The notes: generated by a model not told the origin, from the letters alone. Counted from the first letter of the stretch, positions 586 through 30,460 are shown. The stretch: DNA of 64,000 bases from Alphaproteobacteria bacterium (GCA_963665325.3 CAXXWS020000003.1:512001-576000); one strand, 5' to 3'. Numbers and translations are program-made.

Positions 586-1215
586 CTACTGGCTGGCCCA
601 GACGATGCGGGCGATCCAGTCCAGATCGGAGCGGGCCATGCTGCGGTCCTCGTGCGCGGGGTTGAAGGAGCGCAGCTCCACCCGGCGCGCGGTCAGCCGC
701 GCGAGCCATTTCGCCAGCACCTCGCCCTCGCGGGTGCGCGCCACCACGCGGTCGCCCCGGCGCAGGCTCGCCGCCGGCGACACCACCACGATGTCCCCGT
801 CGCGGTAGACCGGCTCGATGCTGTCGCCCGCGATCTCCAGCGCATAGGCGTTCGGGTCGCCCAGGCCCGGGAAGGCCACCTCGTCCCAGCCCGCGCCCAC
901 CGGGTAGCCGGCATCGTCGAAAAAGCCGTTGCCGCCCGCCTGGGCATGGCCGATCACCGGGATGGTGTGCGCCGGCGCCCCCTCGCGGCGAAGCTGATCG
1001 GCAAAGAGGCCCGACACGCCGGAGCCGGTCGCCGCCATCGCCTTGGAGATGCTCTCCGTGCTGGGCCAGCGCGGGCGTCCGCCCCTGGTGGTGCGCTTGC
1101 TGCGGTTGAAGGTGGTCGGGTCCAGTCCCGAGCGCCTGGCGAGGCCGGATGCGGACAGACCGTTACGATCCGCCAGGGCGTCGAGGGCGGCCCAGACGTC
1201 GGAATGAGTCAGCAT
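586..1215 (-). CDS. HTH transcriptional repressor with C-terminal S24 peptidase domain (CI/LexA-like)
   Basis: N-terminal HTH (LSASGLARRSGLDPTTFNRSKR), Ala-Gly candidate cleavage site (HAQAGG), S24 Ser motif GDSIEP and Lys (VLAKWL). Alternative start at 1224. Confidence 0.9.
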   Translation of the reverse strand: MLTHSDVWAALDALADRNGLSASGLARRSGLDPTTFNRSKRTTRGGRPRWPSTESISKAMAATGSGVSGLFADQLRREGAPAHTIPVIGHAQAGGNGFFDDAGYPVGAGWDEVAFPGLGDPNAYALEIAGDSIEPVYRDGDIVVVSPAASLRRGDRVVARTREGEVLAKWLARLTARRVELRSFNPAHEDRSMARSDLDWIARIVWASQ

Positions 1216-1240
1216 GATGCTCATTTACGCATAATTCCGC

Positions 1241-1269
1241 TTGACATGCACTAGGAATATGACCATATC
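1241..1269 (+). promoter_or_regulatory. putative sigma70 promoter for the cluster
   Basis: TTGACA (1241-1246), 17-nt spacer, CATATC (1264-1269). Overlaps the imperfect palindrome AGGAATAT-GACC-ATATCCT, a possible repressor operator. Confidence 0.55.
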
Positions 1270-1279
1270 CTCGTGCGTA

Positions 1280-1294
1280 GAACAAATCTCGAAC
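1280..1294 (+). promoter_or_regulatory. alphaproteobacterial LexA (SOS) box GAAC-N7-GAAC
   Basis: GAAC AAATCTC GAAC between the putative -10 element and the RBS of the 1309 ORF; exact match to the GTTC-N7-GTTC/GAAC-N7-GAAC consensus. Confidence 0.7.
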
Positions 1295-1308
1295 ATGAAG
1301 AGGGATTC

Positions 1309-1662
1309 ATGCCTGTTTCCAGTCATTCACCTAATTCTCCCGCCGGCGAGGCGCCGTTCCGCAGTGCCGAGGAAGCCTGGTTCTGGTTCATGTCATGGCG
1401 TCTCATGGTCGAGGACGGCGGCACGCCCGGCTATGACGGCCGGGGCCGGCCGTGCATGCCGCTCGACATGTTGGCCTGCCTGCGCCGGCTCGTAAAGCCC
1501 GGCGGGCTCACCCGGCTCCAATTGAAGGTGCTGGCCAGGTTCGGCCGCCGTCTCGAAGCCCCCGGACACGGGCCGCTCGCCCGGCTCTGGGAGGACGCCA
1601 TGGCGCGGCTCGACGAGCTGTTGCGCGACAAGGGCATCGTCAGCAGGAGGCACGCAGCATGA
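1309..1662 (+). CDS. hypothetical protein, first gene of the phage-like operon (possible regulator)
   Basis: RBS GAGGG before ATG 1309; motif PFRSAEEAWFWF; stop overlaps the next start (ATGA). Confidence 0.7.
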   Translation: MPVSSHSPNSPAGEAPFRSAEEAWFWFMSWRLMVEDGGTPGYDGRGRPCMPLDMLACLRRLVKPGGLTRLQLKVLARFGRRLEAPGHGPLARLWEDAMARLDELLRDKGIVSRRHAA

Positions 1663-2180
1663 CCGCCGCGCCGAACGCGGCGAATGGTGACGATGGCGCG
1701 CGCAACGCGGCGAACAGCAACGACGCCGCGCGCAACGCGGCGAACGGTAACGCCGCCGCGCCGAACGCGGCGAACAGTGACGCCGCCGCGCACAACGCGG
1801 CGAACAACAACGATAACGGCGGACGGGCGCTCGCCGTGTTCTCCGGCAGGGCGGACCTCTGCTGGCTCAGGCTGCTCCGGCCCGGCTTCCGTCATTGCTT
1901 CGTTGCGCTGGAGGAAGCCGGGCGGTGGATCACGGTCGATCCGCTGGCCGGCTACACCGATGTCGCCGTGCAGCCCGTACCGGCGGCCTTCGACCTCGCC
2001 GGCTTCTACCGCGAGCAGGGCTTCACGGTGGTGGAAACGCGCCGCCGCCGGCGCATCCGGCCCGCGCCGCTGCTGCCCGCCACCTGCGTCGAGGTGGCCA
2101 AGCGGGTGCTCGGAATCGCCTCCTGGCGCGTGATGACGCCGGGCCAGCTTCACGATTTCCTGCTCCGAAAGAGGAAATAA
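1659..2180 (+). CDS. hypothetical protein with N-terminal 10-aa repeats and a possible permuted papain-like (His...Cys) domain
   Basis: RBS GGAGG and ATGA coupling; motifs PGFRHCF, TCVEVAKRVLG and TPGQL resemble permuted NlpC/P60-type folds (inference). Confidence 0.65.
   Translation: MTAAPNAANGDDGARNAANSNDAARNAANGNAAAPNAANSDAAAHNAANNNDNGGRALAVFSGRADLCWLRLLRPGFRHCFVALEEAGRWITVDPLAGYTDVAVQPVPAAFDLAGFYREQGFTVVETRRRRRIRPAPLLPATCVEVAKRVLGIASWRVMTPGQLHDFLLRKRK
1662..1811. repeat. 5 x 30-bp imperfect tandem repeat (xAAxNAANxx), most units containing the hairpin CGCCGCG-N5-CGCGGCG
   Basis: Units start at 1662, 1692, 1722, 1752 and 1782. The core is the reverse complement of TTCGCCGCGTTnnGCGCGGCG; the second unit has a mismatch in the left arm. 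Confidence 0.9.
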
Positions 2181-2227
2181 ATCTCCTAATATCTCGACAA
2201 ACGAGAAACATGGCGTAAGATGCACTT

Positions 2228-2242
2228 GAACATGGAGAGAAC
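2228..2242 (+). promoter_or_regulatory. second LexA (SOS) box GAAC-N7-GAAC, overlapping the portal RBS
   Basis: GAAC ATGGAGA GAAC, ending 4 nt before the portal ATG at 2247. Confidence 0.7.
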
Positions 2243-2246
2243 AAGC

Positions 2247-3848
2247 ATGAGCCTGGAAACACCCGACCCGGAAGCGCTGCTCGAAGGCTACCGCCGCGCG
2301 GAGGCCCGGCGGCGGCCCTGGGAGGCGCTGTGGCGCGATTGCGCCACCCATGCACTGCCGGGCGGAACGGCGGTCGCGGCACGGACCTACGACGCGACGG
2401 CCGCCGACGCCGCCGAACAGCTTGCCGCCAGCCTGCTCGCGGAACTGACGCCGCCCTTCGAGCGCTGGGTCGGTTTCGAGCCGGGGGGCGAGGCGGGCCC
2501 GGACGCGGTCGATGCGCTGGAGGAAGCCGCGGCCGCCGTGCAGGGCCATCTCGACCGCTCCGCCTTCGCGGTCGAGATGCACCAGGCGCTGCTCGACCTC
2601 GTGGTGTTCGGCACGGGCTGCCTGCTGTTCGAGGAGAGCGCGCTCGGCCGGGCCTCGGCCTTCCGCTTCACCGCGGTGCCGCTCGCGGAGACGGTGCTGG
2701 AGGAGGGGGCGGAAGGCCGGCTCGTCCGGGTCTGGCGGCGGCGGGAGCTTGGCCCGGCCGCGCTGAGGGAACGCTTTCCCCGCGTGCCCGTCCTGAATGG
2801 AGAGGGGCCGTTCGGCGTGGTCGAGCGCGTCGCGCCGGAGGCAGGAGGCGGCGCCGACGCCGCCAGTTCGATGAATCGCCGCGTTATGCGCGGCGGCGCC
2901 GACGCCGCCAGTTCGATGAATCGCCGCGTTATGCGCGGCGGCGCCGACGCCGCCAGTTCGATGAATCGCCGCGTTATGCGCGGCGGCGCCGACGCCGCCA
3001 GTTCGATGAATCGCCGCGTTATGCGCGGCGGCTACCGCTACCTCGCCGTGCTGGAAGGCGGCGGCGGGCGGGCGGCGCAGGTGCTGGCCGAGGGCCGGTT
3101 CGCCGTCTCGCCCTTCGTGTGCTTCCGCTGGCTAAAGGCGCCGGGGGAGATCTATGGACGCTCGCCGGTGATGAAGGCGCTGCCCGACATCAAGACCGCC
3201 GACAAGGTGGTGGAACTCATCCTGAAGAACGCCTCGATCGCCGCGACCGGCATCTGGCAGGCGGACGATGACGGCGTGCTCGACCCGACGGCGGTGGAGC
3301 TGGTGCCGGGCGCGGTGATGCCCAAGGCGGTCGGCTCGGCGGGCCTCACGCCGCTCGCCGCGCCGGGGCGCTTCGACGTTTCGCAGCTCGTGCTGGAGGA
3401 TTTGCGCAAGCGTATCCGCCACGCGCTGCTCGCCGACCGGCTGGCCGAGCCCGCGAGCCCGGCCATGACCGCGACCGAGGTGCTGGAGCGCGCGGCGGAA
3501 ACGGCAAGGCTGCTGGGCGCGACATACGGGCGGCTGGAGGCCGAACTGCTGACGCCGCTGATCGAGCGCGCGCTGGCGATCCTCGCCCGGCGCGGCGAGG
3601 TGCCGGCCTTCGCGCTGGACGGGCGCGACGCGGGACTTCGCCTTCGCTCGCCGCTGGCCCAGGCGGCCGGGCGGCGCGAGGCGGGGGCAGCGCTCACCTG
3701 GCTCGGCGCGGTGGCGGGGCTCGGGCCGCAGGCGCTGGCGGCGGTCGATACCGCGCGGGCCGCGCGCTGGCTCGGCGCCCGCCTCGGTGTGCCGCCCGCC
3801 CTGCTGGAGCCGCCGGACCTGCTGCCGGAAACGCCTCTCCTGGAGTAG
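2247..3848 (+). CDS. portal / head-to-tail connector protein (T7 gp8-like), carrying a 60-aa repeat insertion
   Basis: Motifs LAASLLAELTPP...W, LLDLVVFGTG, FRWLKAPGEIYGRSP, MTATEVLER and LRSPLAQ, typical of podoviral head-tail connectors; RBS GGAGAG. Confidence 0.92.
   Translation: MSLETPDPEALLEGYRRAEARRRPWEALWRDCATHALPGGTAVAARTYDATAADAAEQLAASLLAELTPPFERWVGFEPGGEAGPDAVDALEEAAAAVQGHLDRSAFAVEMHQALLDLVVFGTGCLLFEESALGRASAFRFTAVPLAETVLEEGAEGRLVRVWRRRELGPAALRERFPRVPVLNGEGPFGVVERVAPEAGGGADAASSMNRRVMRGGADAASSMNRRVMRGGADAASSMNRRVMRGGADAASSMNRRVMRGGYRYLAVLEGGGGRAAQVLAEGRFAVSPFVCFRWLKAPGEIYGRSPVMKALPDIKTADKVVELILKNASIAATGIWQADDDGVLDPTAVELVPGAVMPKAVGSAGLTPLAAPGRFDVSQLVLEDLRKRIRHALLADRLAEPASPAMTATEVLERAAETARLLGATYGRLEAELLTPLIERALAILARRGEVPAFALDGRDAGLRLRSPLAQAAGRREAGAALTWLGAVAGLGPQALAAVDTARAARWLGARLGVPPALLEPPDLLPETPLLE
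2847..3032. repeat. 4 x 45-bp perfect tandem repeat in frame within the portal gene (GGADAASSMNRRVMR)
   Basis: GGCGGCGCCGACGCCGCCAGTTCGATGAATCGCCGCGTTATGCGC x4, followed by GGCGGC. Confidence 0.95.
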
Positions 3849-3882
3849 CCGGCGAACTATACGACTGGCGGCGTCGGCGCCG

Positions 3883-4128
3883 CTATTCGGCCGGGGCGGC
3901 GGGCTGTTCGTTGCGCCGCACGATATAGCCTTCGAGGAAGTCCATCTTGCCTTCGATCCGGCTCAGGCGGTCGCGGATCTCCCGAAGTTCCGCCTCGATG
4001 CGGTCCATGCGGGCGCTGAGGCTGTTTTCCACGCCGTCGATGCGGGCGCCGAGACTGCGCTGGCCCTGAAGTATCAGGCCGGCGAGCGCGATGCCGACGG
4101 CAAGGGTCGCGATGAGTTCCGGAGTCAA
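3883..4128 (-). CDS. small membrane-anchored coiled-coil protein on the opposite strand
   Basis: RBS GGAGGAG before TTG 4128; MTPELIATLAVGIALAGLIL (TM helix) followed by heptad-like RIDGVE..RMDRIEAELREIRDRLSRIEG. Confidence 0.7.
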   Translation of the reverse strand: MTPELIATLAVGIALAGLILQGQRSLGARIDGVENSLSARMDRIEAELREIRDRLSRIEGKMDFLEGYIVRRNEQPAAPAE

Positions 4129-4249
4129 GGGGCTCCTCCCCAACCGGCCGGGCAGGCCCGGCAACACTTTCGCCCGAGCGGGCGGCTCCTCCGGGGGCCG
4201 CCCGTTTTCTTTCAACCCTTTCTTCCGACGAAACTGGAGACAGACACAA

Positions 4250-4924
4250 GTGGAAACGGAGACCGAAACCGAAATGGAGGCACCGGCCCGGCCGGACGGC
4301 CTTCCGGACGAATTCTGGGACGCGGAGGCCGGCAGCGTCCGGCTCGACGAGCTGGTCGGCGCCTACGGGACGCTGGCTTCTGCGGAGCGCGCACCCGCAA
4401 GCCCGGAGGACTATGCGCTCGAACTGGACGGGCTGCTCGGCGGCCCGGACGCCGAGGCCAACCGGCGGATGCACGAAGCCGGCTTCACCAACGCGCAGGC
4501 GCAGCTTGTCTACGACATGGCGTCCTCGCTGCTGCTGCCGCTGGCGGGCGAGGTCGCGGGCGAGCTGGAGCGGGGCGAGCGCCAAGCCCGGCTGGCGGAC
4601 CGCTATGGCGGCGAGGACGGATGGCGGCGCGCGAAGGGCCAGATGGAGGCCTGGGCGGCCGCCAACCTGCCCGCCGGCGTGGCCGGGGCGCTTACCGGCT
4701 CGGTCGAGGGCGCGGCCGCGCTCGAACGGCTGATGGATGCGGGCGAGCCCGGCCTCGGCGGTCATGGCGGCGAAAGGCCGGGCGGCGCGGTGACGCTCGA
4801 CGGCCTGCGCCGGCTCCAGGGCGATCCCCGTTACTGGCGCGACCGCGACCCCGCCCTCGTCCGGCAGGTCATGGAGGGCTACCGGCGCCTCTACCCCGAC
4901 GCCGGCGAGGACGCCGGAATCTGA
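4250..4924 (+). CDS. capsid assembly scaffolding protein (T7 gp9-like)
   Basis: RPDGLPDEFWD...LVGAYGTL N-terminus and DPRYWRDRDP C-terminus; lies between portal and capsid. Start is GTG 4250 or ATG 4274. Confidence 0.8.
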   Translation: METETETEMEAPARPDGLPDEFWDAEAGSVRLDELVGAYGTLASAERAPASPEDYALELDGLLGGPDAEANRRMHEAGFTNAQAQLVYDMASSLLLPLAGEVAGELERGERQARLADRYGGEDGWRRAKGQMEAWAAANLPAGVAGALTGSVEGAAALERLMDAGEPGLGGHGGERPGGAVTLDGLRRLQGDPRYWRDRDPALVRQVMEGYRRLYPDAGEDAGI

Positions 4925-5002
4925 CAATTCGCCGCGTTCTGCGCGGCGACGGCGAGGACGCCGGAATCTGACAATTCGCCGCGTTCTGCGCGGCGACGGC
5001 GA
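4903..5002. repeat. 2 x 47-bp tandem copies of the double-hairpin repeat; supplies the scaffold stop codon
   Basis: CGGCGAGGACGCCGGAATCTGACAATTCGCCGCGTTCTGCGCGGCGA at 4903 and 4950. Confidence 0.9.
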
Positions 5003-5068
5003 CGACGGGTCCTGATGCGGACCCGGCACACACGCAAACCCTGAAACCGCAACAGGAGGACAGGCAAC

Positions 5069-5887
5069 ATGCCCGTCGATCTTTCCCCTTCCTTCATCAA
5101 GGCGTTCGAGGGCGAAGTCCACAGCGCCTACCAGCGCCAGGGCTCGAAGCTCCGCGACACGGTGCGCACCCGGCGCGGCGTCATGGGCTCCAGCGTCACC
5201 TTCCGCAAGGTCGGGCGCGGCGCCGCATCCACCAAGGCCCGGCACGGCCAGATCCCGGTGATGAATGTCGATCACGCCGCCATCGAATGCCAGCTCAGGG
5301 ACTATTACGCCGGTGAATGGGTTGACCGGCTCGACGACCTGAAGATCGGCGGCGGCGAGCGCGACACGGTCGCCAAGGCAGGCGCCTATGCGCTCGGCCG
5401 CAAGACCGACCGGCTCGTCGCCGCGGCGCTCGACGGCTCGACGAACTTCGCCGGCGCCGACACGGACGGGCTGACGAAGGCAAAGGTGCTCACCGCCTTC
5501 GAGATGCTCGGCCAGGCCGACGTGCCGGACGACGGCGAGCGCACGTCCGTCATCGGCTGGAAGCAGTGGTCGGACCTCATGAAGATCGAGGAGTTCGCCA
5601 ATGCCGATTATGTGGGGGCGGAAGACCTGCCCTGGCGCGGCACCCAGGCGAAGCGCTGGCTCGGCACGCTCTGGCTGCCGCATTCGGGGCTGACGCTCGA
5701 TGGCTCGGTCCGGCTCTGCCACTGGTACCACAAGAGCGCGGTCGGCCACGCCGCCGGCGCGGAAGTCACCACCGACATCACCTGGCACGGCGACCGCGCC
5801 GCCTGGTTCGTCGCCAACTGGATGAGCCAGGGCGCCGTGTCGATCGACGCCGAGGGCGTCGTGACCATGCGCTGCCTCGAAGACTGA
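5069..5887 (+). CDS. major capsid protein (podoviral HK97-fold type)
   Basis: RBS AGGAGG; FIKAFEGEVHSAYQRQGSKLR, AYALGRKTD, VPDDGER, WLGTLW and MSQGAVSID motifs; follows the scaffold gene. Confidence 0.9.
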   Translation: MPVDLSPSFIKAFEGEVHSAYQRQGSKLRDTVRTRRGVMGSSVTFRKVGRGAASTKARHGQIPVMNVDHAAIECQLRDYYAGEWVDRLDDLKIGGGERDTVAKAGAYALGRKTDRLVAAALDGSTNFAGADTDGLTKAKVLTAFEMLGQADVPDDGERTSVIGWKQWSDLMKIEEFANADYVGAEDLPWRGTQAKRWLGTLWLPHSGLTLDGSVRLCHWYHKSAVGHAAGAEVTTDITWHGDRAAWFVANWMSQGAVSIDAEGVVTMRCLED

Positions 5888-5916
5888 CCGCAACGACAGG
5901 GAGACAACGCCAGGCA

Positions 5917-6276
5917 ATGGCTTTCAAATCCGCAAACCTCTCCGTGCTGGCCTATGCCAACGGATTCACCTTCTGGCACTACAAGTCCGCCGGAGACACG
6001 AACGGCGACATGACCGGCGCCGGCTATTTCGACGCCGCCGCGGACCTGCTGCGCCCGGGCGACATGCTGGCGCTCAACAGCGCGGACGACGACGCGGCGC
6101 TGGTCCGCGTGTCGTCCAACCGCAACGGCCGGGTCGCGGTTGGCTTCACCACCGACTGGGAGACCCAGGCGGCGGTCGCCGATGCCGACGGCGGCTCCAC
6201 CATCGATGCCGAGGCGCGCGCGGCGGTCAACGCCATCATCCGCGCGCTCGAACGGGTGGGTGTGCTCGCCGCCTGA
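5917..6276 (+). CDS. capsid decoration / head-fibre-like protein
   Basis: MAFKSANLSVLAYANGFTFWHY...GYF N-domain plus C-terminal AVADADGGSTIDAEARAAVNAIIRALERVGVLAA, resembling head-fibre/DUF2793-type termini. Confidence 0.65.
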   Translation: MAFKSANLSVLAYANGFTFWHYKSAGDTNGDMTGAGYFDAAADLLRPGDMLALNSADDDAALVRVSSNRNGRVAVGFTTDWETQAAVADADGGSTIDAEARAAVNAIIRALERVGVLAA

Positions 6277-6315
6277 CGCCAGCCGGGGGTTCGCCCCCGG
6301 TCCCCGACCTTCCCC

Positions 6316-6346
6316 GCCCCCTCTCCCTCGCGGAGAGGGGGCTTTT
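6316..6346 (+). terminator. intrinsic terminator after the capsid genes
   Basis: GCCCCCTCTCC-CTCGC-GGAGAGGGGGC-TTTT: 11-bp stem with a short U tract, preceded by another hairpin at ~6283-6299. Confidence 0.6.
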
Positions 6347-6367
6347 GCCTGAAAGGAGGCTGCCTTC

Positions 6368-6928
6368 ATGGCATTGACCGCCATCCAGATCGCGAGCCAG
6401 GCGCTCGTCCGGCTGGGCGCGCTGCCGATTTCCGATTTCGCGGAGCCAGTGCTCGAGGCGCGCACCGCCGCCGCGCTCTACCCGACGCTCCGCGACACGC
6501 TGATCGCCGGCCATGCCTGGCGCTTCGCCACGGCGGAGGCCGAGCTCGATCCGGCGGACGAGGCGCCGTTGCCCGGTTTCGCGCATGTCTTCCGGCTGCC
6601 GGCCGATTTCCTGAACGTGCTGGCCGTGGAGGGCGGGCGCGAGACCGGCTGGCGCATTGCCGGCGGAAAGCTGCACGCCCATCCGGCGGCGGTGCGGCTC
6701 GCCTATCTCTTCCGCGCCGACGAGGCCGAGTTCCCGCCCTGGTTCGCGGACGCGCTTGCCGCCGCCCTTGCCGCCGCCTTCTGCCTGCCGGTGACGGAGA
6801 ATGCGTCGCGCGCCGAGGCGCTGGCGCGTCTTGCCGAAACGGCGCTCCGCCGCGCCCGGCGCATCGACGCGCTGCACGACCCGGCGCCCGCGCCCGCGCA
6901 CTTCCCGCTGATCGAGGTGCGGGCATGA
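6368..6928 (+). CDS. tail tubular protein A / adaptor (T7 gp11-like)
   Basis: IQIASQALVRLGALPISDF, HAWRFAT, FRLPADFL, FPPWFADALAAALA; RBS AAGGAGG. Confidence 0.85.
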   Translation: MALTAIQIASQALVRLGALPISDFAEPVLEARTAAALYPTLRDTLIAGHAWRFATAEAELDPADEAPLPGFAHVFRLPADFLNVLAVEGGRETGWRIAGGKLHAHPAAVRLAYLFRADEAEFPPWFADALAAALAAAFCLPVTENASRAEALARLAETALRRARRIDALHDPAPAPAHFPLIEVRA

Positions 6929-8802
6929 CGCGGATCAACACGCTCAAGACCTCGTTCGGCGCGGGCGAGCTCGCGCCGCGCCTCGCGGGGCGTCCGGACC
7001 TCGCCGCCTATCGCGACGGCGCGCGCCGGCTCCGCAATGTTGCGGTCCATGCGACGGGCGGTCTGTCGCGGCGGCCGGGGCTCGCCTTCGTCGAGGCCGC
7101 GCCCGGACCCGGCCGGCTCGCCGCCTTCGAGTTCAACACGGAGGAGAGCTACCTGCTGCTGTTCACCGACCGGGCGCTGCGCATCTACAGAAACGGCAAC
7201 CGGACCGCTCTCATTGCCGCACCCTGGCGGGAAGCGGACCTGGCGCAGATCAACTGGACGCAGACGGCGGACACGCTGCTGGTCGTCCATCCCGACTACC
7301 CGCCGCAGACCGTGACGCGCCGGGCGGGGGAGGACTGGCGGATCGCGCCCTGGGAATGGGCCGGGCGCGCCGGCAGGTCGGGGCAGCCCTACCACCGCTA
7401 CGCTCCGCCTTCGGTCACGCTCGCGCCGTCCGGGGCCTCGGGACGCATCCGCTTGACGGCGTCGGCGGATGTCTTCGCGGCCGAGGATACGGGCCAGGTC
7501 TTCCGGATCGGCGCAGACGAGGTTCGGATCGTGCAGGTCGTGTCGGCCACGGAGGTGGAAGCGGATGCGGTCGGCACGCTTTCGGGCGGAACGGCAGCGA
7601 CAGCGGACTGGCGCGAGCCCGCCTTCTCGCCCCGGCGCGGCTGGCCGGTCTCGGTCGTGTTCCACCAGAACCGGCTGGTCATCGGCGGCGCGCGCTCCCT
7701 GCCGGACCGGATCTGGCTCTCGCGCACAGGGGCCTTCTTCGACTTCGACACCGGCACGGGGCTCGACGACGAGGCCATCGCCTTCCCGCTGCTCGCGGAC
7801 CAGGCGAATGCGGTGCGCGCGGTCGTCTCCGGGCGGCATCTGCAGGTTTTCACCTCAGGCGCGGAATGGGCCGTCTACGGCGACCCGCTGACCCCCGCCT
7901 CGATCCAGCTTCGCCGGCAGACGCGCATCGGCTCGCCGGCCGACCGCGCCGTCCGCCCGGTCGATGTCGAGGGGGCGGTGCTTTTCCTTGCCCGCAACGG
8001 GCGGGAGCTGCGCGAGTTCCTGTTTGCCGATGCCGAGCTCGCCTACCGGGCGCAGGACCTGGCGTTGCTCGCGAGCCATCTGTTCGCAGCACCGGCGGAG
8101 CTGGCCTGGGACGGCGCATCCCGGCGCCTGCTGGTCGTCATGGGCGACGGTTCGATCGCCGCGCTTACCGCCTGGCGGGCGGAGGGCATCCATGCCTGGA
8201 CACGGTTCGAGACCGACGGGGCGTTCCGGTCGGCCGCGGTTGCGGGCGGCGCGGCCTGGGCGCTGGTCGAGCGCGAGGGCCGGTTCTCGGTAGAGCGTTT
8301 CGACGAGGTGCTCGGCGTGGACGCGGCGGTCTCCGGGACGGCGCCGAACCCCACCCGCGCCTGGGGCGGCCTCGCCCATCTGGAAGGGCGGACGGTCGCG
8401 GCCGTCGCGGACGGACGGGCGCTCCCGGGGCTCCGGGTCTCGGGCGGACGCATCCTGCTCGACGCTCCGGCGGGCCATGTGCAGGCCGGCCTCGCCTTTG
8501 CGCACAGGGTCGAACCGCTCGTTCCCGGCGTCCAGCTTGCGCGCGGCGCGATGCAGGGCGTGGCGCACCGGGCCGTGCGGGTGGTGCTGCGCCTCGAGAG
8601 CACCGAGGCGCTTCGGTGCGACACGGGCTTCGGATTTCGCCGGGCCGCGCTCGGCGACGACCCTTTCACGGGCGACATCTCCCTCGGCGCGGGCGGCTGG
8701 CGGCGCGACGGCGCGGCGCCGCTCTGGCGAATCGAGGACGAGAGCCCGCTTCCCTTCCACCTCCTTTCCGCTTCAACCGAACTCAAGGTGACCGACATAT
8801 GA
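6925..8802 (+). CDS. tail tubular protein B / nozzle (T7 gp12-like)
   Basis: SFGAGELAPRL.GR.D, GGLSRRPG, WTQTADTL, GWPVSVVFHQNRLV, IWLSRTG, AWTRF; translationally coupled to the previous gene. Confidence 0.9.
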   Translation: MTRINTLKTSFGAGELAPRLAGRPDLAAYRDGARRLRNVAVHATGGLSRRPGLAFVEAAPGPGRLAAFEFNTEESYLLLFTDRALRIYRNGNRTALIAAPWREADLAQINWTQTADTLLVVHPDYPPQTVTRRAGEDWRIAPWEWAGRAGRSGQPYHRYAPPSVTLAPSGASGRIRLTASADVFAAEDTGQVFRIGADEVRIVQVVSATEVEADAVGTLSGGTAATADWREPAFSPRRGWPVSVVFHQNRLVIGGARSLPDRIWLSRTGAFFDFDTGTGLDDEAIAFPLLADQANAVRAVVSGRHLQVFTSGAEWAVYGDPLTPASIQLRRQTRIGSPADRAVRPVDVEGAVLFLARNGRELREFLFADAELAYRAQDLALLASHLFAAPAELAWDGASRRLLVVMGDGSIAALTAWRAEGIHAWTRFETDGAFRSAAVAGGAAWALVEREGRFSVERFDEVLGVDAAVSGTAPNPTRAWGGLAHLEGRTVAAVADGRALPGLRVSGGRILLDAPAGHVQAGLAFAHRVEPLVPGVQLARGAMQGVAHRAVRVVLRLESTEALRCDTGFGFRRAALGDDPFTGDISLGAGGWRRDGAAPLWRIEDESPLPFHLLSASTELKVTDI

Positions 8803-9215
8803 GCGCACTTCTTCCCGTAGCCCTGGCGGCGGGCAATGCCCTGCTCGCCGAAGCCTCCGCCGCCGAGACGGCCTCCCGGCGCCGCGCCGCCGCGAATGCC
8901 CAGGCGGCCGACCTCCGCGCCCGCACGGACGAACGGGAACGCCTGCGCCGCCGCCGGCTGAAGCAGGCGCTCGCCCGGGCCCGGGCGCGGTTCGGCGCGG
9001 CCGGCACCGGCTCCGCCGGCGGGTCCGCCGCCGCCCTGCTCGGAGGGCTTGCGGCCGAAAGCGAGCGGGAGGGCCGCCATGCCGGGAATGCGGCCTCCCG
9101 CCGGCTCGCCGCGCTCGGGGCCGACCGGGCCCATGCGGGCCGGCTCGACCGGCTGGGCCTCCTGCGCCGCGCGGGCGGGCTGCTCGCGCCGCGTCCCGCG
9201 GGGCGGCGCGGCTGA
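8799..9215 (+). CDS. putative internal virion (ejection) protein, gp14-like
   Basis: ATGA overlap with tail tubular B; Ala/Arg-rich helical protein with ARARFGAAGTGSAGGS; lies where internal core proteins usually sit. Confidence 0.55.
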   Translation: MSALLPVALAAGNALLAEASAAETASRRRAAANAQAADLRARTDERERLRRRRLKQALARARARFGAAGTGSAGGSAAALLGGLAAESEREGRHAGNAASRRLAALGADRAHAGRLDRLGLLRRAGGLLAPRPAGRRG

Positions 9216-9227
9216 CGGGCGGCGGCC

Positions 9228-9407
9228 TTGGATGCGCTCTCACTCCGGGTCTTCGCCGAATACGGGCCGCTCGCCCTCGGCTGGGGGCTCGCGGCCTGGC
9301 TGCTGCACCGCGATGCCCGCGGCCGCCAGCAAGTGCTCGATGTCATCGTCGCCAACACGCGCGCGCTCGCCGTGCTGGCCGAGAAGATCGACGCGCTCAG
9401 GCGGTAG
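9228..9407 (+). CDS. small TM + coiled-coil protein (holin-like), 59 aa, below the ORF-track cutoff
   Basis: TTG start; MDALSLRVFAEYGPLALGWGLAAWLLHRD...NTRALAVLAEKIDALRR. Confidence 0.55.
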   Translation: MDALSLRVFAEYGPLALGWGLAAWLLHRDARGRQQVLDVIVANTRALAVLAEKIDALRR

Positions 9408-9417
9408 CGGGGGCCGC

Positions 9418-9461
9418 CCTTCGATACGCGCCCGCTTGCGCGGTCGCTACTCAGGGTGAGG
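9418..9461. repeat. REP-like element (CTTCGATACGC...GCTACTCAGG.TGAGG)
   Basis: Near-identical to 13833-13876 and to the reverse complement at ~49580-49623. Confidence 0.75.
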
Positions 9462-9566
9462 GAAAAGCCGGGAGTGGCGGTCCGGGCCCTCCCTCTTCGC
9501 GAGTAGCGGCGCTCCCCGGCTACCGGCCGCTGCTTACGATCCGCTATCCAATCCAACGGAGGTTCG

Positions 9567-9676
9567 ATGAACCCCACCTTCCCTGCTTTTCTCGATGCCT
9601 GGAACCGCAGCCAGAATCTGGCGACGCCCGCGCTTCACCGGAACATCGCCGAATGGTTCGGCCGCCGGATCGCTAG
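9567..9676 (+). pseudogene. N-terminal fragment of the large terminase gene, cut off by IS1634
   Basis: RBS GGAGG, ATG 9567, MNPTFPAFLDAWNRSQNLATPALHRNIAEWFGRRIA. Joins in frame to 11751 onward (R-G-T-R-R-MLLLAFRGSGKST) once the IS and one CTAG copy are removed. Confidence 0.85.
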
Positions 9677-11746
9677 CCCAAGTTTAACAGAGCATTTTGA
9701 AGATCATTGATTATCAATGCCTTACGGAGCAATAATTTCGCGTCTGGCACTACATTTCGGTTATTTCGCCCGGTTCGGGATCAGACGATCATTTTCCTGA
9801 TGCCTCCAGGGGCGGGGTCGATGCCGAGCGCGCGATAGATTTCTTGCTGTTCGGGCTCGGCCCGTGTGGCCTTGCGGACATGCAAGGTGCGTCCGTCCTT
9901 GCGCCTGAAGGTCGCGGTGACCCGCTGCTGGCCTTCGAGGATGGCTCGCAGGCTGGCCCAGCTGGCGTGTTCGCCGTGCTCGGCGAGGCGCCGGCGGATG
10001 GTCTGCACCATCTGGTAGGCGATCACGGTGATGAACAGGTGGCCGTCGGAGCGCCTCTGGGTCTGGTGGAAGATGGGGCGCAGGCCGAGTTCCGACTTGA
10101 GCGATCGGAACACCGCCTCCACATCGGTGAGCGAGGTATAGGTCCGCCACAGCGCCTCCTCGTCCCAGTCCTCGACGTTGGTGCGCAGGCAGTAAACGCC
10201 GGGATGGGTGGCCATGGTGCCGGCGAGCGGGCGGCGCTCCCATGTGACGGCCCGGGCCTTCTCGCCGCTTTCGTCGGCGATGACGTCGATGTCGTAGTGG
10301 GCCGCGGCGCCGCGGCTCTTCTCCCTGATCCGGCCGATCCGCTGCCAGACATGGTCGAGCCGCTTGCGGGTGCGCGGCCGCTTGAGGCCGTCGTGGAGCT
10401 TCTGCATCTCGCCCTCGAAGCGCGCGGCGAAGCGGTTTGCGATGCCCTGTTCCTTCTTCGCCCGCGCCTCGGAGTAGCAGTAGAGCCGCGCCTCTCCAGC
10501 TTCGGCGTCGACCGCCTTGTGGACATGGACCGTCTGGCGCGACCGGGTCTCGATGGCCAGCGCCAGCTCGGGATCGAAGCGGCGGGTGCGTTCCCGGCTG
10601 ACCGCGAGATAGCGGTAGCCGTTCGCGCGCAGCCAGGCGATGTTGGCCTCGGTGGCGATCCCCGCATCCATCACCACCAGCGCGTCCGCCGGCGCGCCCA
10701 GGGCGCCGAGCATCGACGCCAGGGTCCTGTCTTCGTTGACCGCGCCCGAGAACACCTCGGAGCGGCGCACGAAGCCCGAGCCGTCGAGCACCAGCCCCAG
10801 GGTCAAGAGCGGGCAATCCGAGCGCTTCTCCTTGGAATGGCCGCGTTCGGCCTTGGCCTGGGCCGCCGCCGCGCCCTCGAAGAAGGTGTTGGTCAGGTCG
10901 TACAGCGTCACCGTGTGGCGCAGGCCGAACAGATCCGTCGCCCGATCGAACAGATGCGCCTCGATCGCCGCGCGCTGCGCCATCAGGGCGTCGGAGGCGC
11001 GGTACAGGCGCATCATGCTCATGCGCTCGAAGTCCACCCCCAGCAACTCGCCGAGCGCCGAACGCTCGCACAGCCAGCGCCAGGAGGCGCGCTCCGAGCC
11101 CGGCGCCGCCATGCGCGCGATCACGGTGGCCATGGCGAGCGCGCGCTGCGTGCCGTTGAAGCCCAGGCGCTCCAGCAAAGCCTCCAGGCCGAGCCGCTCC
11201 ATGGCCCACAGCCCGACATGCTCGACGCCGACCGAACGCGGGCGGATCAGCTCCAGGGAGCCGACATCCACCGTCTGCAGGTCAGGGCGCCCGGTCCCGC
11301 CGGACGGCGCGCTGTTGAGCAATTGCGCGGCGATGCGCTGGGCGTGCCGCTCGACCTCCTCCGGACAGGACAGCGAAACCAGCTCGGCCTGGCGGTCGAG
11401 CTGCTGCTGGATCCGGCTGCACAGCACCGCCCAGTGCCGCCGCTCGACAGGGAAGTCGCTCCCCAGGTTGAGCAGGGTGCGCTGGCGGATCTTCCCGCCG
11501 TCGCGCTCCGAGCGAACAAGGCGATGGGAATAATAGACCTCGCCGCGCTCGCCGGTTCCGGTCCTGGTGCGGCGAATGAACATGGCGCACAGCATAGGAG
11601 CGGGCGCAAGGTCTCGAAATCCCCAAGTGAAAATATTATGGCACTACATTGCGCCCCCGGAAACCTCAATCCAGCAATATCAATGGCTTGATGACACCGC
11701 GCCGGCCAACCTCGACAAAATCGGCCACCAAAACGTTAAACTTGGG
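9677..11746 (-). mobile_element. IS1634-family insertion sequence, complete
   Basis: Terminal inverted repeats CCCAAGTTTAAC (9677-9688) and GTTAAACTTGGG (11735-11746), flanked by a CTAG direct repeat (9673-9676, 11747-11750). Confidence 0.92.
9781..11583 (-). CDS. IS1634-family DDE transposase
   Basis: MFIRRT..., LYDLTNTFFEG, GHSKEKRSDCPL, VVMDAGIAT, VEAVFRSLKSELGLRPIFH. Confidence 0.92.
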   Translation of the reverse strand: MFIRRTRTGTGERGEVYYSHRLVRSERDGGKIRQRTLLNLGSDFPVERRHWAVLCSRIQQQLDRQAELVSLSCPEEVERHAQRIAAQLLNSAPSGGTGRPDLQTVDVGSLELIRPRSVGVEHVGLWAMERLGLEALLERLGFNGTQRALAMATVIARMAAPGSERASWRWLCERSALGELLGVDFERMSMMRLYRASDALMAQRAAIEAHLFDRATDLFGLRHTVTLYDLTNTFFEGAAAAQAKAERGHSKEKRSDCPLLTLGLVLDGSGFVRRSEVFSGAVNEDRTLASMLGALGAPADALVVMDAGIATEANIAWLRANGYRYLAVSRERTRRFDPELALAIETRSRQTVHVHKAVDAEAGEARLYCYSEARAKKEQGIANRFAARFEGEMQKLHDGLKRPRTRKRLDHVWQRIGRIREKSRGAAAHYDIDVIADESGEKARAVTWERRPLAGTMATHPGVYCLRTNVEDWDEEALWRTYTSLTDVEAVFRSLKSELGLRPIFHQTQRRSDGHLFITVIAYQMVQTIRRRLAEHGEHASWASLRAILEGQQRVTATFRRKDGRTLHVRKATRAEPEQQEIYRALGIDPAPGGIRKMIV

Positions 11747-11763
11747 CTAGGGGTACGCGGCGC

Positions 11764-13107
11764 ATGCTGCTGCTGGCCTTCCGGGGCTCCGGCAAATCGA
11801 CCCTGCTCGGCCTGCTTGCGGCCTGGATGCTCAGGCGCGACCCGGACCGGCGCATCCTGGTGCTGGCGGCGGAGGCGGCGCTGGCGTCCAAGACGGTGCG
11901 CACGGTGCGCCGCATCCTGGAGCGCCATCCGCTGACGGAAGCGCTCCGGCCCGACCGGCCCGAGGAATGGGCGGCCGACCGGCTGACCGTGCCGCGCCGG
12001 CTCGTCTCGCGCGACCCCTCGCTGCTGGCGCGCGGCATCGGTGCCAATATCACCGGAAGCCATGCCGATATTGCGATCTGCGACGATGTCGAGGTGCCCA
12101 ACACCTGCGGCACGCCGGCGAAGCGGGCCGACCTGCGCGCCCGGCTCTCGGAGATCGACTATGTGCTGAGCCCCGGCGGCTTCCAGATCTACAGCGGCAC
12201 GCCGCACAGCTACTACTCCATCTATGCCGGGGACCCGCGGCCGGAGGAAGGCGACAAACGGCCGTTCCTGCACGACTTCCGACGGAAGGAGAAGAAACTC
12301 ACGAAGAATGCGTGGCCGGAACGCTTTCCGGCGAAAACGATCCGTGCGATCCGCAAGCGCGCGGGCCCGGCGCGCTTTGCGAGCCAGATGCTGCTCGAGC
12401 CCGTGCAGTCGGAGGACGGACGGCTGAACGCCGAATGGCTGCGCCGCTACGAGGAGGCGATCGACTACAGCGAGGTGAACGGCAAGCCCGTGCTGCGACT
12501 GGCCGGCCGGCGGCTGGTCTCCGCCTCGGCCTGGCTGGACCCCTCCTTCGGCAGGCGGGACAAGGGCGACGCCTGCGTTCTCGCCGCGGTGTTCACCGAC
12601 GAGGACGGCCGGCGCCTGCTGCACCGGGTGGCCTATCTCTATTACGACCCGAAGAACGACCGCGACGGCGCGGCGAAGCAGTTGTGCCGGCAGGCGGCCG
12701 CCCATGCGCGCAAGCTGCTGCTGCCGGTCGTCCATGTGGAGTCCAACGGCATGGGGGCATGGATCCCGAAAATCCTGGAACGGGAACTGGCGCGCGAGGG
12801 GCACGGCGCCACGGTCATCGGCATCCCCAACAGCCGGCCGAAGCATGAGCGCATCCTGGAGGCATTCGATGCGCCGCTCGCCGCCAATGCGCTGTGGGCC
12901 CATGCCAGCGTGTTCAAGTCCTCCTTCCTGCGCGAACTGAGGGAATGGCGGCCGGAGAACCGGAACGGCCCTGACGACGGGCTGGACGCAGCCGCCTGCG
13001 CGTTGCTGGCGGAGCCGGACCGCATCCGCCGGCTCGGCCGCGCGCCGCGCCTGGAATGGCGGGAGCACGCAAGCCCCGGCCGGGCCCGCACCGATTTCCG
13101 CATCTGA
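11764..13107 (+). CDS. terminase large subunit (T7 gp19-like), C-terminal 447 aa after the IS
   Basis: Walker A AFRGSGKST, Walker B IAICDDVE, GTP coupling motif, nuclease motifs WLDPSFG / VESNG / DDGLDA. Confidence 0.9.
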   Translation: MLLLAFRGSGKSTLLGLLAAWMLRRDPDRRILVLAAEAALASKTVRTVRRILERHPLTEALRPDRPEEWAADRLTVPRRLVSRDPSLLARGIGANITGSHADIAICDDVEVPNTCGTPAKRADLRARLSEIDYVLSPGGFQIYSGTPHSYYSIYAGDPRPEEGDKRPFLHDFRRKEKKLTKNAWPERFPAKTIRAIRKRAGPARFASQMLLEPVQSEDGRLNAEWLRRYEEAIDYSEVNGKPVLRLAGRRLVSASAWLDPSFGRRDKGDACVLAAVFTDEDGRRLLHRVAYLYYDPKNDRDGAAKQLCRQAAAHARKLLLPVVHVESNGMGAWIPKILERELAREGHGATVIGIPNSRPKHERILEAFDAPLAANALWAHASVFKSSFLRELREWRPENRNGPDDGLDAAACALLAEPDRIRRLGRAPRLEWREHASPGRARTDFRI

Positions 13108-13123
13108 CGAAGGAGGAAACCCC

Positions 13124-13672
13124 ATGATTCCCGCACTTCTCGCCCGGATCGGGCTGCCGCTGATCGCGCGCCTCGCCGGCGCCGGCCTGGAGGCGCTCGA
13201 CAACCCGGCGGCCGACGCCGCCGCAAAGGCGCTCCGCGAGGTGGACGGCGTGCTTCGCAGCGGCGGCGTCGCCCCGGAGGCGCTCGAGGCCGCGAACCGG
13301 CGCATCGAGGTGAAGGCGCGCTCGCGTGAGGCGCAGACCGCCTGGCGCGAGGTCAACGCCACCATGCGCGCCGAGACCCGTGCCGAGGATGCCTATGTGC
13401 GCCGCTGGCGGCCGACCTTCGGCTATGCGGTGACGGCCGCCTGGGCGCTGCAGATGGCCGCCATCGCCTGGGCGGTGGTCGCCCACCCGCCGGACGCGCC
13501 GGCGATCCTGGCGGCCGCAGCCTCGCTCAGCGCCATGTGGGGCGTGGCGCTGGCGGTGCTGGGCGTGGCCGTGCATGAACGCTCGCGCGACAAGGCGCTC
13601 GCCGCCGGCCAGCCTGCTTCCGGTCTCGCGAGCCTGGCCGCCGCCCTGCTGGACCGCCGGAAGGCGGAGTAA
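13124..13672 (+). CDS. 3-TM holin (GTA_holin_3TM-like)
   Basis: DAYVRRWRPTFGY followed by hydrophobic helices and LGVAVHERS.DK; RBS AGGAGG. Confidence 0.8.
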   Translation: MIPALLARIGLPLIARLAGAGLEALDNPAADAAAKALREVDGVLRSGGVAPEALEAANRRIEVKARSREAQTAWREVNATMRAETRAEDAYVRRWRPTFGYAVTAAWALQMAAIAWAVVAHPPDAPAILAAAASLSAMWGVALAVLGVAVHERSRDKALAAGQPASGLASLAAALLDRRKAE

Positions 13673-13893
13673 TACCAGCGGCGGTTGCTCGGAACCGATA
13701 GCGAGGGCGCCCCTGCCGTCGGCCCGGTGCTCTTCCACCTCATCCCGAGTAGCGGTGTCAGCCGTTTTCCCCTCATCCCGAGTAGCGGCGCCAGCCGCGT
13801 ATCGAGGGAGGCGTTTCCACCGGCGGGACGGTCCTTCGATACGCACCCGCTGGCGCGGGCGCTACTCAGGATGAGGAGAGGGCCGGGACGCCG
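13669..13893. repeat. ~225-bp composite REP/MITE-like element; inverted copy at 49563-49746
   Basis: GTAATACCAGCGGCGGTTG...GAGGAGAGGGCCGGGACGCCG is near-identical to the reverse complement of 49563-49746. This copy has an extra internal CCTCATCCCGAGTAGCGG duplication. Confidence 0.85.
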
Positions 13894-13903
13894 GCGCCCC
13901 TGC

Positions 13904-14698: not shown

Positions 14699-14712
14699 GT
14701 TTCTTGCGTTCC

Positions 14713-30369: not shown

Positions 30370-30460
30370 GGGGAGGTGGCCGAGCGGTTGAAGGCGCACG
30401 CCTGGAACGCGTGTATACGGTAACCCCGTATCGTGGGTTCGAATCCCACCCTCTCCGCCA
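30370..30460 (+). tRNA. tRNA-Ser (GGA)
   Basis: Acceptor GGGGAGG/CCTCTCC, anticodon arm CACGC-CTGGAAC-GCGTG, long variable arm, T arm GTGGG-TTCGAAT-CCCAC, encoded CCA. Confidence 0.95.

Follow-up and report, generated by a model that had tools for sequence, protein, structure and literature searches.

Is the cluster of phage head, tail, packaging and lysis genes at positions 586-13672 of a 64,000-nucleotide stretch of alphaproteobacterial DNA (GCA_963665325.3, CAXXWS020000003.1:512001-576000) a prophage, or has it become part of its host? The whole stretch is referred to here as the window, and all coordinates are counted from its first nucleotide. A reading of the window made from the sequence alone (the sequence-only reading) had seen in the cluster a candidate gene transfer agent (GTA) of T7-type podovirus origin, domesticated and embedded in the host rather than an ordinary prophage. 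On the latter point our results agree with it: the gene order is widespread among relatives, the flanks are conserved and empty sites occur, the genes are under purifying selection and the capsid tree follows taxonomy. We hold it to be highly probable that the cluster is a domesticated, vertically inherited element. That it is an old, chromosomally fixed derivative of a podovirus of the HTVC010P/Hodr type, which lacks an RNA polymerase, and that it would produce DNA-filled particles and lyse its host when triggered by the SOS response, is a prediction to which we give somewhat better than an even chance.

Matches to Pfam and PHROGs families confirmed the presence of head, tail, packaging and holin genes (Table 1). 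Families were sought in Pfam, PHROGs and NCBIfam, and no integrase, replication, RNA polymerase, primase or small-terminase family was matched in the cluster; the sequence-only reading had likewise found no integrase, replication gene, RNA polymerase or recognisable small terminase. What the cluster keeps is only genes for control, particle, packaging and lysis, without means of excision or replication. Its composition had been described as host-like and its flanks as metabolic, and both descriptions were correct: the third-position G+C content (GC3) was 0.86-0.92 in the cluster genes vs 0.81-0.92 in the flanking host genes.

The cluster is far from unique to this genome. The portal gene was found in 15 of 16 congeners, in all ten genomes of the sister genus, in one of ten genomes of a third genus and in 5 of 24 other families sampled. 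The capsid gene was missed in three fragmented congeners, in which the portal gene lies at contig ends. On 20-kb stretches of nine congeners the whole gene order from repressor to holin is kept, with a capsid identity of 90-96%. In an even sample of the class, 69 of 397 good-quality genomes, belonging to 56 of 294 genera, had the capsid gene, the matches being mostly 52-70% identical and single in all but one genome; the carriers include nine genomes of 0.9-1.4 Mb. When species-representative genomes were scanned for the pattern, at least 590 loci were obtained. The best 80 of these at least 590 loci came from many Azospirillum species, Telmatospirillum, Skermanella, Niveispirillum, Oleisolibacter, Elioraea, Magnetospirillum, Roseospira, Tagaea and bins labelled Thalassospiraceae. 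These 80 have the same order plus a fibre-like protein of 540-864 amino acids following the internal protein, and the terminase is often followed by a small membrane protein, a hydrolase of the SleB type, the holin with three transmembrane segments (3-TM holin) and a protein that binds peptidoglycan. The genes are ordered differently in a few loci (L115, L116, L119, L071-L073, L084).

Very small genomes also carry the cluster. Four genomes of 0.9-1.1 Mb retain the capsid, tubular A, portal and scaffold genes and at least part of the terminase gene, as far as their contigs permit. In G251 a partial repressor, portal, scaffold, capsid, g119, tubular A and B, the fibre N-terminus, a two-part terminase and a SleB match were found in a rearranged order, with g117 and g173 unmatched. 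The stretch of G108 stops at a contig end just past the capsid gene, leaving scaffold, SleB and repressor beyond view. Only the first 154 terminase residues and no repressor were matched in G355, and no fibre was matched in G136 (1.1 Mb). In the rearranged loci of G108 and G251 (L211 and L212; 0.9 Mb, 37-41% G+C) terminase residues 2-154 and 167-447 lie about 3.4 kb apart, which could reflect an inserted gene or a split terminase.

The element is inherited vertically at a conserved chromosomal site. The gene lysK, encoding class-I lysyl-tRNA synthetase, lies upstream of the repressor gene in 11 of the 22 loci with at least 3.5 kb of left flank. Downstream are DUF952 and pyrD; of 85 loci, most of them too short to reach that flank, 18 had pyrD. 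In Telmatospirillum lysK, repressor, cluster, DUF952 and pyrD follow one another within about 15 kb. Four genomes without portal or capsid have lysK, repressor, DUF952 and pyrD in this same order, i.e. an empty site at which the repressor persists without the cluster; the distribution of the repressor otherwise nearly matches that of the portal. The repressor, fragments of g117 and g173 and the first 44 portal codons remain in the congener G001 as a deletion scar. Because host-like genes lie inside some Azospirillum loci, the cluster has been split in place there: a host-like membrane protein of about 790 amino acids is encoded between scaffold and capsid in some, and loci of the A. lipoferum type have the atp operon and further host genes ahead of the capsid gene. 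The locus has been rearranged in the genus of the window, since its right flank is common to only five congeners (G005, G016, G011, G008, G013) and not to four others, and its left flank to none.

Capsid pairwise distances track those of the host genes at the site, with Pearson and Spearman coefficients of 0.79 and 0.60 for lysK and of 0.90 and 0.72 for pyrD. The capsid diverges more slowly than these flanks (0.22-0.26 vs 0.35). In a capsid tree of 92 rows rooted with Hodr, 18 taxon labels required 17 changes, the minimum; shuffled labels required a mean of 22.8, and none of 200 shuffles was as low as 17. The groups g1, g2, Elioraea, Magnetospirillum and g75 were monophyletic with support of 99-100. 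The 17 Azospirillum rows stood on one side of a branch, itself unsupported, and the two Niveispirillum rows were not monophyletic and needed two changes. The Hodr branch measured 2.75 changes per site, and the chromosomal family formed a tight, separate group.

Selection was estimated within the genus as the ratio of non-synonymous to synonymous substitution rates (dN/dS) by the Nei-Gojobori method with our own script. The ratio was 0.13 for capsid and g59, 0.19 for scaffold, 0.20 for holin, 0.21 for portal, about 0.25 for tubular A and B, 0.35 for g117 and 0.41 for terminase, which indicates purifying selection, and there were no stop codons in the congener segments used. Mean dS was host-like, 0.25-0.50 for the cluster genes (0.63 for g173, from 6 pairs only) vs 0.23-0.32 for three neighbouring host genes.

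The phages nearest to the cluster are distant. No close homologue inside a complete phage was found among 50,697 phage records, and the best cultured match, Pelagibacter phage Hodr, is 43.8% identical in the capsid, 30.9% in the portal and 30.8% in tubular B. The next matches were Methylophilales phage MEP301 (tubular B, 32.1%) and Vibrio and Yersinia podoviruses (about 30%), and one unannotated 5-kb fragment matched at 50-58%. Hodr (34 kb) has, in order, the portal match, the capsid match, a small open reading frame (ORF), a 198-amino-acid ORF at the place of tubular A and the tubular B match, with about 20 kb of further genes beside them. Thus the T7-type assignment of the sequence-only reading stands for the portal and tubular proteins and fails for T7 proper, the module being of the HTVC010P/Hodr type without an RNA polymerase.

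In IMG/VR there are at least 577 capsid relatives. The 33 mapped records of at least 12 kb all hold the same cluster of 15-18 kb, which where both ends are present runs from the repressor to SleB/holin; the five longest records checked are classed by IMG/VR as proviruses. Integrases in the two longest records (34 kb) could have marked a complete phage. This was rejected, as they belong to a lambda-like prophage, unrelated to the cluster and with an integrase of the P4 type, that sits inside the portal gene; this was mapped in G438, and G439 is 85-89% identical to G438 over the aligning stretches. In G441, another of the five longest, a weaker integrase-like match (29.1 bits, cut-off 27.1) lies, by the record coordinates, about 4 kb downstream of the capsid gene. 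Separately, about 29 kb interrupts the portal gene of G009, the C-terminal fragment of which has two integrase homologues next to it (L031/L032). The break points differ, being at about residue 348 of the window portal in L209 (G438:C1:3169-5536) vs about 170 in L031/L032, and the IMG/VR records are from Azospirillum-like genomes. Inserting elements may favour the portal gene, or the coincidence may be due to chance.

Neither a GTA nor a chromosomal cluster of the podovirus type was described for these bacteria in the literature searched; supplementary tables, among them those to George et al. 2022 and to the paper on HTVC010P, lay outside this search and may hold such loci. A paper on HTVC010P-type phages (PMC8477408) places their nearest large-terminase (TerL) homologues, at 49-51%, in a Rhodospirillaceae genome and takes this no further. 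A term search of the paper on the podovirus ΦGT1 (PMC10386132) found no mention of Azospirillum, Rhodospirillales or GTAs.

Table 1. Features of the cluster in the window, with strand and supporting matches
Feature	Position	Strand	Evidence
S24 repressor, LexA/CI-like, autocleavable by motif	586-1224	-	PF00717 1.3e-20; phrog_4 1.2e-22
Control region (85 bp)	1225-1308	+	TTGACA, inverted ATTCC/GGAAT repeats, GAAC-N7-GAAC box 1280-1294
g117, four-helix, candidate transcription activator/antiterminator	1309-1662	+	no family; fold model
g173, candidate cysteine hydrolase	1659-2180	+	no family; fold only
Portal (head-to-tail connector)	2220-3848	+	PF12236 2e-115; phrog_332 1.1e-81
Scaffold-like protein	4277-4924	+	no family match; named from position and conserved synteny
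Major capsid protein	5069-5887	+	PF19821 3.7e-78; phrog_3437 5.9e-61
g119, small conserved protein	5917-6276	+	phrog_18004 2.8e-11, function unknown
Intrinsic-terminator-like hairpin	6316-6342	+	11 pairs (9 G-C), then TTTT
Tail tubular protein A (adaptor)	6368-6928	+	phrog_394 7e-41
Tail tubular protein B (nozzle)	6925-8802	+	phrog_376 1.1e-130; Pfam Phage_nozzle weak, 6e-4, below cut-off
Small Ala/Arg-rich internal-virion-like protein	8799-9215	+	phrog_418 'internal virion protein' 1.2e-6
g59, 59 amino acids, one hydrophobic segment (membrane protein)	9228-9407	+	no family match
Large terminase, first ~37 codons	9567-9676	+	aligns with intact G011 gene; tblastn match in all congeners
Insertion sequence, 2,070 bp	9677-11746	-	12-bp terminal inverted repeats, CTAG duplication; 604-amino-acid DDE transposase (DDE_Tnp_1) 9781-11595
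Large terminase, remainder	11747-13107	+	phrog_38 3.3e-66
3-TM holin	13124-13672	+	PF11351 GTA_holin_3TM 4.8e-11, 43.7 bits (cut-off 24.8); phrog_1544 6.6e-17; phrog_3427 holin 1.8e-4

How the cluster may be controlled is suggested by its left end. The first gene, which the sequence-only reading had left unnamed, encodes a LexA/CI-like S24 repressor (PF00717) and is transcribed divergently from the particle genes. The protein has an N-terminal helix-turn-helix, AQAG at the position of the LexA cleavage site, the serine motif and the conserved lysine, all of which are kept in 43 aligned orthologues; the serine motif reads GDSIEP here and GDSMEP in most of the orthologues. That it might be the host LexA was considered and rejected, since it scores 27 bits against TIGR00498 (cut-off 111) and the true lexA lies on contig C3. 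Apart from this sub-threshold match, NCBIfam named none of ten cluster proteins.

Between a conserved TTGACA and the start of g117 the sequence GAACAAATCTCGAAC contains a direct repeat, GAAC-N7-GAAC (1280-1294), which we take to be the alphaproteobacterial SOS box, and the identical motif is found just upstream of the host lexA. There are 119 exact boxes in the 5.58-Mb genome, and 3 matches within the window vs 1.36 expected. The control region is conserved across ten genomes of the genus, the box being exact or with one change in most congeners, and 17 of 43 loci in other taxa have an exact box in the space that separates the repressor from the gene after it. The TTGACA site, at about 1250, was not called by a promoter scan because its -10 element is poor. 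The cluster promoter thus carries a putative host-type LexA (SOS) box while the cluster has an S24 repressor of its own.

The first gene under this promoter, g117, had no Pfam, PHROG or NCBIfam match, and 34 orthologues were aligned. Its model, with a predicted local distance difference test score (pLDDT) of 83.9, weakly resembles phage 21 Q (6jnx_P; Z 6.1, root-mean-square deviation (rmsd) 3.6, 85 residues aligned) and AlpA (7xyb_G; Z 5.2, rmsd 3.0, 78 aligned, 20% identity), as well as many sigma region 4 domains at Z 4-5, all of these being below the safe level for helical proteins. Foldseek found nothing in the PDB at E<=0.001 for g117 or g173. Look-alikes of g117 in the Atlas were dismissed as unnamed clusters or chance-level hits (Phage_antitermQ 0.81, DUF6362 0.81). 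From the model, g117 is a candidate activator or antiterminator of the operon. A hairpin separates g119 from tubular A, and 18 of 61 related loci have one like it there, also with a T-rich tail.

The sequence-only reading had listed no endolysin. This has to be qualified for g173, which matched no sequence family in Pfam, PHROGs or NCBIfam and whose fold points to a hydrolase. After an N-terminal low-complexity NAAN repeat, the protein has a histidine and a cysteine (His24, which begins a strand, and Cys88, which begins a helix) that are invariant in 39 aligned orthologues. The model (pLDDT 91.8) was closest to TseH (6v98; Z 7.1, rmsd 3.8, 107 aligned), YiiX (2if6; Z 6.5, rmsd 3.5, 95 aligned) and the cysteine peptidase 3kw0 (Z 5.5, rmsd 4.1, 103 aligned). 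It is therefore a candidate permuted NlpC/P60-type (YiiX/TseH-like) hydrolase, possibly acting on the cell wall, for lysis or for entry. An ORF at 1684-2133 (+) was rejected as a wrong frame over g173.

Among the remaining small proteins, g119 had been called a decoration protein, a name that found no support, its sole match being to phrog_18004. In the census it was called as an ORF behind the capsid gene 46 times, phage Hodr has an ORF of similar size in that position, and its Atlas look-alikes were set aside as unnamed clusters or chance-level hits (Mtd_N 0.80, DUF2793 0.78). By tblastn g59 was found only in this genus. The scaffold-like protein is syntenic and 67-93% identical within the genus, and the portal, encoded by a single copy in the genome, has a variable insert at about residues 210-270. 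The 3-TM holin does belong to the GTA-associated family that the sequence-only reading had named.

The large terminase is one gene cut by an insertion sequence (IS). Once the IS and one copy of the CTAG duplication are removed, the frame is open over 488 codons; in this assembly the gene is knocked out. Twelve identical full copies of the IS are present in the genome. Contigs of three of four public runs (from two studies) join 9660 to 11751 without the IS, and the 16 nucleotides between at this junction are those of the intact gene of congener G011. The IS insertion is therefore recent, polymorphic and not fixed. The stretch as a whole is not covered by the contigs of these four runs. Elsewhere in the genus, about 1.8 kb has been inserted between the scaffold and capsid genes of L025 (G005; 9566-11350). 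The insert bears a long ORF on the minus strand (521 amino acids in the twin locus L045) and is probably another IS; the genomes of this genus seem to be rich in active IS elements.

The surroundings of the cluster are those of a chromosome. G+C is about 70% across the region, and third-position G+C marks the reading frames clearly. Upstream lies an acetoacetyl-CoA-synthetase-like ORF, named by eye from its translation, and downstream an unnamed 264-amino-acid ORF on the minus strand followed by a 2-hydroxyacid dehydrogenase gene. An ORF at 13685-14716 (+), which could have been a gene following the holin, was rejected as an antisense frame of the real gene at 13904-14698 (-). The sole tRNA gene in the window is at 30370, 17 kb from the cluster, and an Rfam scan of 1-32000 found tRNA only. 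G+C-rich repeat units with inverted symmetry, of the repetitive extragenic palindrome (REP) or miniature inverted-repeat transposable element (MITE) type, are found at 9408-9560, where relatives carry the fibre gene, and at 13680-13900, after the holin gene. Further away, a 356-amino-acid protein (19048-20118, -) has an N-terminus that by eye is macro-domain-like, and the neighbouring gene (about 20153-20900, -) lies in a patch of low G+C (0.45 vs about 0.70) and ends in a GIY-YIG/T5orf172-type domain, also by eye. This pair may be horizontally acquired and defence-related.

Several observations weigh against a working particle that moves DNA. Neither a small terminase nor large ejection proteins could be recognised anywhere in the family, by family scans or in the loci of relatives, so that DNA delivery is unexplained. 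The claim that the cluster has no tail fibre was right for this genus and wrong for the family, in which relatives keep the fibre described above. Nor is a fibre gene scattered elsewhere in the genome, as it is in RcGTA and as the sequence-only reading might have led one to expect: tblastn of the complete genome with two fibres (1e-3) found none, and a hidden Markov model of 36 fibre N-termini gave nothing at E<=10 in the six frames. No SleB homologue was found in the genome either. The stretch between tubular B and terminase measures 3.5-4.7 kb in relatives (internal protein, fibre, small ORFs) and in this genus is reduced to the internal protein, g59 and the repeat element; the lack of a fibre is a secondary loss in this genus, not a family trait. 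The terminase has the highest dN/dS, and its identity to the window (11764-13107) falls into two classes, 89-98% (G011, G005, G012) and 65-76% (six others), in congeners whose capsids are 90-96% identical throughout. The two classes could reflect allele exchange or replacement, faster change or relaxed constraint. The fold matches of g117 and g173 are only in the middling range. Copies have been damaged or lost: besides the IS in this assembly, the cluster is deleted in G001, with remnants only, broken in G009 (the portal split of about 29 kb beside integrase genes, and a truncated tubular B) and frameshifted in G025, four genomes have empty sites, and the capsid was not found in any of ten genomes of genus g3. 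Because several copies are damaged, the element is dispensable in the short term, though conserved in the long term. Finally, the genomes of the phage relatives are about 34 kb, and with a like capacity the particle could hold the whole cluster of 13-15 kb, so that the classic criterion of a GTA, a particle holding less than its own genes, would not then apply by size alone.

An ordinary defective prophage remnant, functionless and drifting to loss, would fit the IS in the terminase gene, the G001 deletion, the G009 disruption, the G025 frameshifts, the absence from genus g3 and the provirus label of the five longest related IMG/VR records checked. We nevertheless consider such a remnant very improbable, because order, flanks and single copy are conserved across families, dN/dS is 0.13-0.41 without stops in the congener genes used, lysK and pyrD are less conserved than the capsid, the cluster persists in genomes of 0.9-1.1 Mb, and an IS-free allele exists in public runs. 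It is still less probable that the cluster has spread horizontally into a preferred site, be it as a mobile satellite, as a capsid-forming island or as a phage relying on a helper or on its host. There is no integrase, primase or att-like tRNA site, the same lysK-pyrD site is used in different families, the capsid tree follows taxonomy with the minimum of changes, dS is like that of neighbouring host genes, the composition is fully host-like, and the integrases near relatives belong to other prophages inserted in the portal gene. Such a satellite would, on the other hand, account for the small size, the lack of replication genes and the presence of a capsid and terminase, since capsid-forming islands are small and have their own capsid and terminase, as well as for the two terminase divergence classes in one genus and the few loci with another gene order.

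A further possibility is an SOS-triggered killer particle or programmed lysis, comparable to a head-bearing bacteriocin of the PBSX kind or to an AlpR/AlpA circuit, in which the gain would be the killing of competitors or the release of contents or DNA, and packaged DNA would be incidental and undelivered. In pyocin and alp loci a repressor is divergent from a small positive regulator that is followed by effector and lysis genes, and here the S24 repressor diverges from g117, which is small and Q/AlpA-like, with effector and lysis genes behind it, and an SOS box is present. The lack of recognised ejection proteins also suits it, and two lineages keep the cluster without a detectable fibre (this genus and G136), under purifying selection in this genus. 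However, portal and large terminase are under purifying selection, which is hard to explain if packaging is irrelevant, and most lineages keep a fibre of 540-864 amino acids. We judge this explanation to be unlikely, although it deserves more weight than either a remnant or a satellite.

In the reading that we prefer, the domesticated podovirus derivative with SOS-triggered particles and lysis, the mechanism is drawn from gene content and control elements only. DNA damage would inactivate the host LexA, which would bind the GAAC-N7-GAAC box, and the S24 repressor would cleave itself, upon which the divergent promoter would fire. The g117 protein may aid the start of RNA polymerase, or its read-through of the terminator after the capsid genes. 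Proheads would be formed from portal, scaffold and capsid, and the large terminase would pack chromosomal DNA by the headful, there being no recognisable small terminase to give specificity. Adaptor and nozzle would close the head, and the holin, perhaps with the g173 hydrolase, would lyse the producer. Once released, the particles would behave as a GTA does, or as PBSX particles do in Bacillus. In this genus it is doubtful whether they would deliver to other cells, since the fibre gene and the SleB-type lysin of relatives are gone. A more specific version is put forward tentatively, and we think it possible rather than probable: that the element is an ancient, independent, podovirus-built GTA, fixed between lysK and pyrD before several Rhodospirillales-type families diverged and switched by the SOS response; that, without an ejectosome, it delivers DNA to the periplasm only, to be taken up by recipient machinery as with RcGTA; and that the fibre-less form is a second step, in which a DNA-filled particle was kept for a use other than delivery.

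One comparison is with agents of the RcGTA type (Rhodobacter capsulatus, Caulobacter CcGTA). These too are phage-derived head, tail and terminase clusters without integrase or replication genes, inherited vertically in Alphaproteobacteria under purifying selection and regulated by the host, host control being suggested here by the LexA box. The holin family PF11351 is the only family shared. Structural genes are not: the present cluster has a PF19821 capsid, a PF12236 T7-type portal, tubular proteins and a short tail, whereas RcGTA is HK97-type and siphovirus-like, and its tail marker GTA_TIM (PF13547) was not found in this genome, although a Caulobacter control was positive. Control of RcGTA is of the CtrA/GafA/quorum-sensing type, whereas that of the present cluster appears to be of the SOS type through S24; furthermore, its lysis genes lie inside the cluster. 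Neither has a DNA-binding small terminase recognisable in the cluster, which according to the sections consulted of a 2024 review (PMC11841831) is also the case for the known GTAs.

The closest cultured relatives, the HTVC010P/Hodr pelagiphages and MEP301 (about 34 kb, without RNA polymerase), have the order of ORFs described above in the case of Hodr, but are complete viruses with about 20 kb more genes, in some cases including tRNA-targeting integrases, which the chromosomal family lacks. With the T7-like Autographiviridae the cluster shares portal and tubular A and B, and of the internal core gp14-16 only one small internal-virion-like protein and no large ones; unlike them it has neither its own single-subunit RNA polymerase nor a T7-type replication module. 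Inducible temperate prophages differ in that the cluster has no integrase, att-like site or replication module and occupies a site conserved among relatives, and satellites of the capsid-forming phage-inducible chromosomal island (cf-PICI) kind differ in that it has no integrase or primase and its chromosomal site is fixed across families.

PBSX of Bacillus is chromosomal, SOS-inducible via a repressor and non-propagating, and is said to package host DNA and lyse its producer. The cluster resembles it in being chromosomal and, by its sequence, in repressor/SOS type control, but PBSX has a long contractile tail, consists of unrelated genes and belongs to Firmicutes, and it is not known to be conserved at one site across orders. 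In the AlpR/AlpA and PrtR/PrtN systems of Pseudomonas aeruginosa an autocleavable S24 repressor stands beside a small positive regulator, and lysis or pyocin genes are switched on after DNA damage. An S24 repressor beside g117 is a similar arrangement. The likeness of g117 to AlpA (Z 5.2, 20% identity) is weak and does not extend to a common sequence family, and the effector in the present case is a head plus its packaging motor. Desulfovibrio has a GTA with a very short tail, Dd1, the genes of which, to our knowledge, were never assigned. It would be a precedent for a short-tailed GTA, although from another phylum.

The sections consulted of the 2024 review list only RcGTA-like, Bartonella, Brachyspira, Desulfovibrio and Methanococcus agents (PMC11841831), and as far as these sections go the genetically defined GTAs of Alphaproteobacteria are all RcGTA-like or of the Bartonella type. 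The present cluster is found in single copy at one chromosomal site in about one sixth of the sampled species of the class, even in genomes of 0.9 Mb, and sponge metagenomes contain sequences of its form in the genus of the window. Counts of lysogeny are inflated because such loci are filed as proviruses by prophage finders and in IMG/VR. A 2012 comparison of Azospirillum, in its section 2.8, names a 'phage-related lysozyme' as the only phage-like core gene, in identical context in four strains, and refers besides to DNA of about 10 kb in particles from A. lipoferum strains (PMC3899980). The Azospirillum and Magnetospirillum lineages have poor or partial RcGTA clusters, which raises the question of whether they exchange DNA by another agent, one tied to DNA damage; as carriers from both genera can be cultivated, this is directly testable. 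If the reading preferred here is true, Alphaproteobacteria would have a second, unrelated and short-tailed particle system, a further case of convergent virus domestication.

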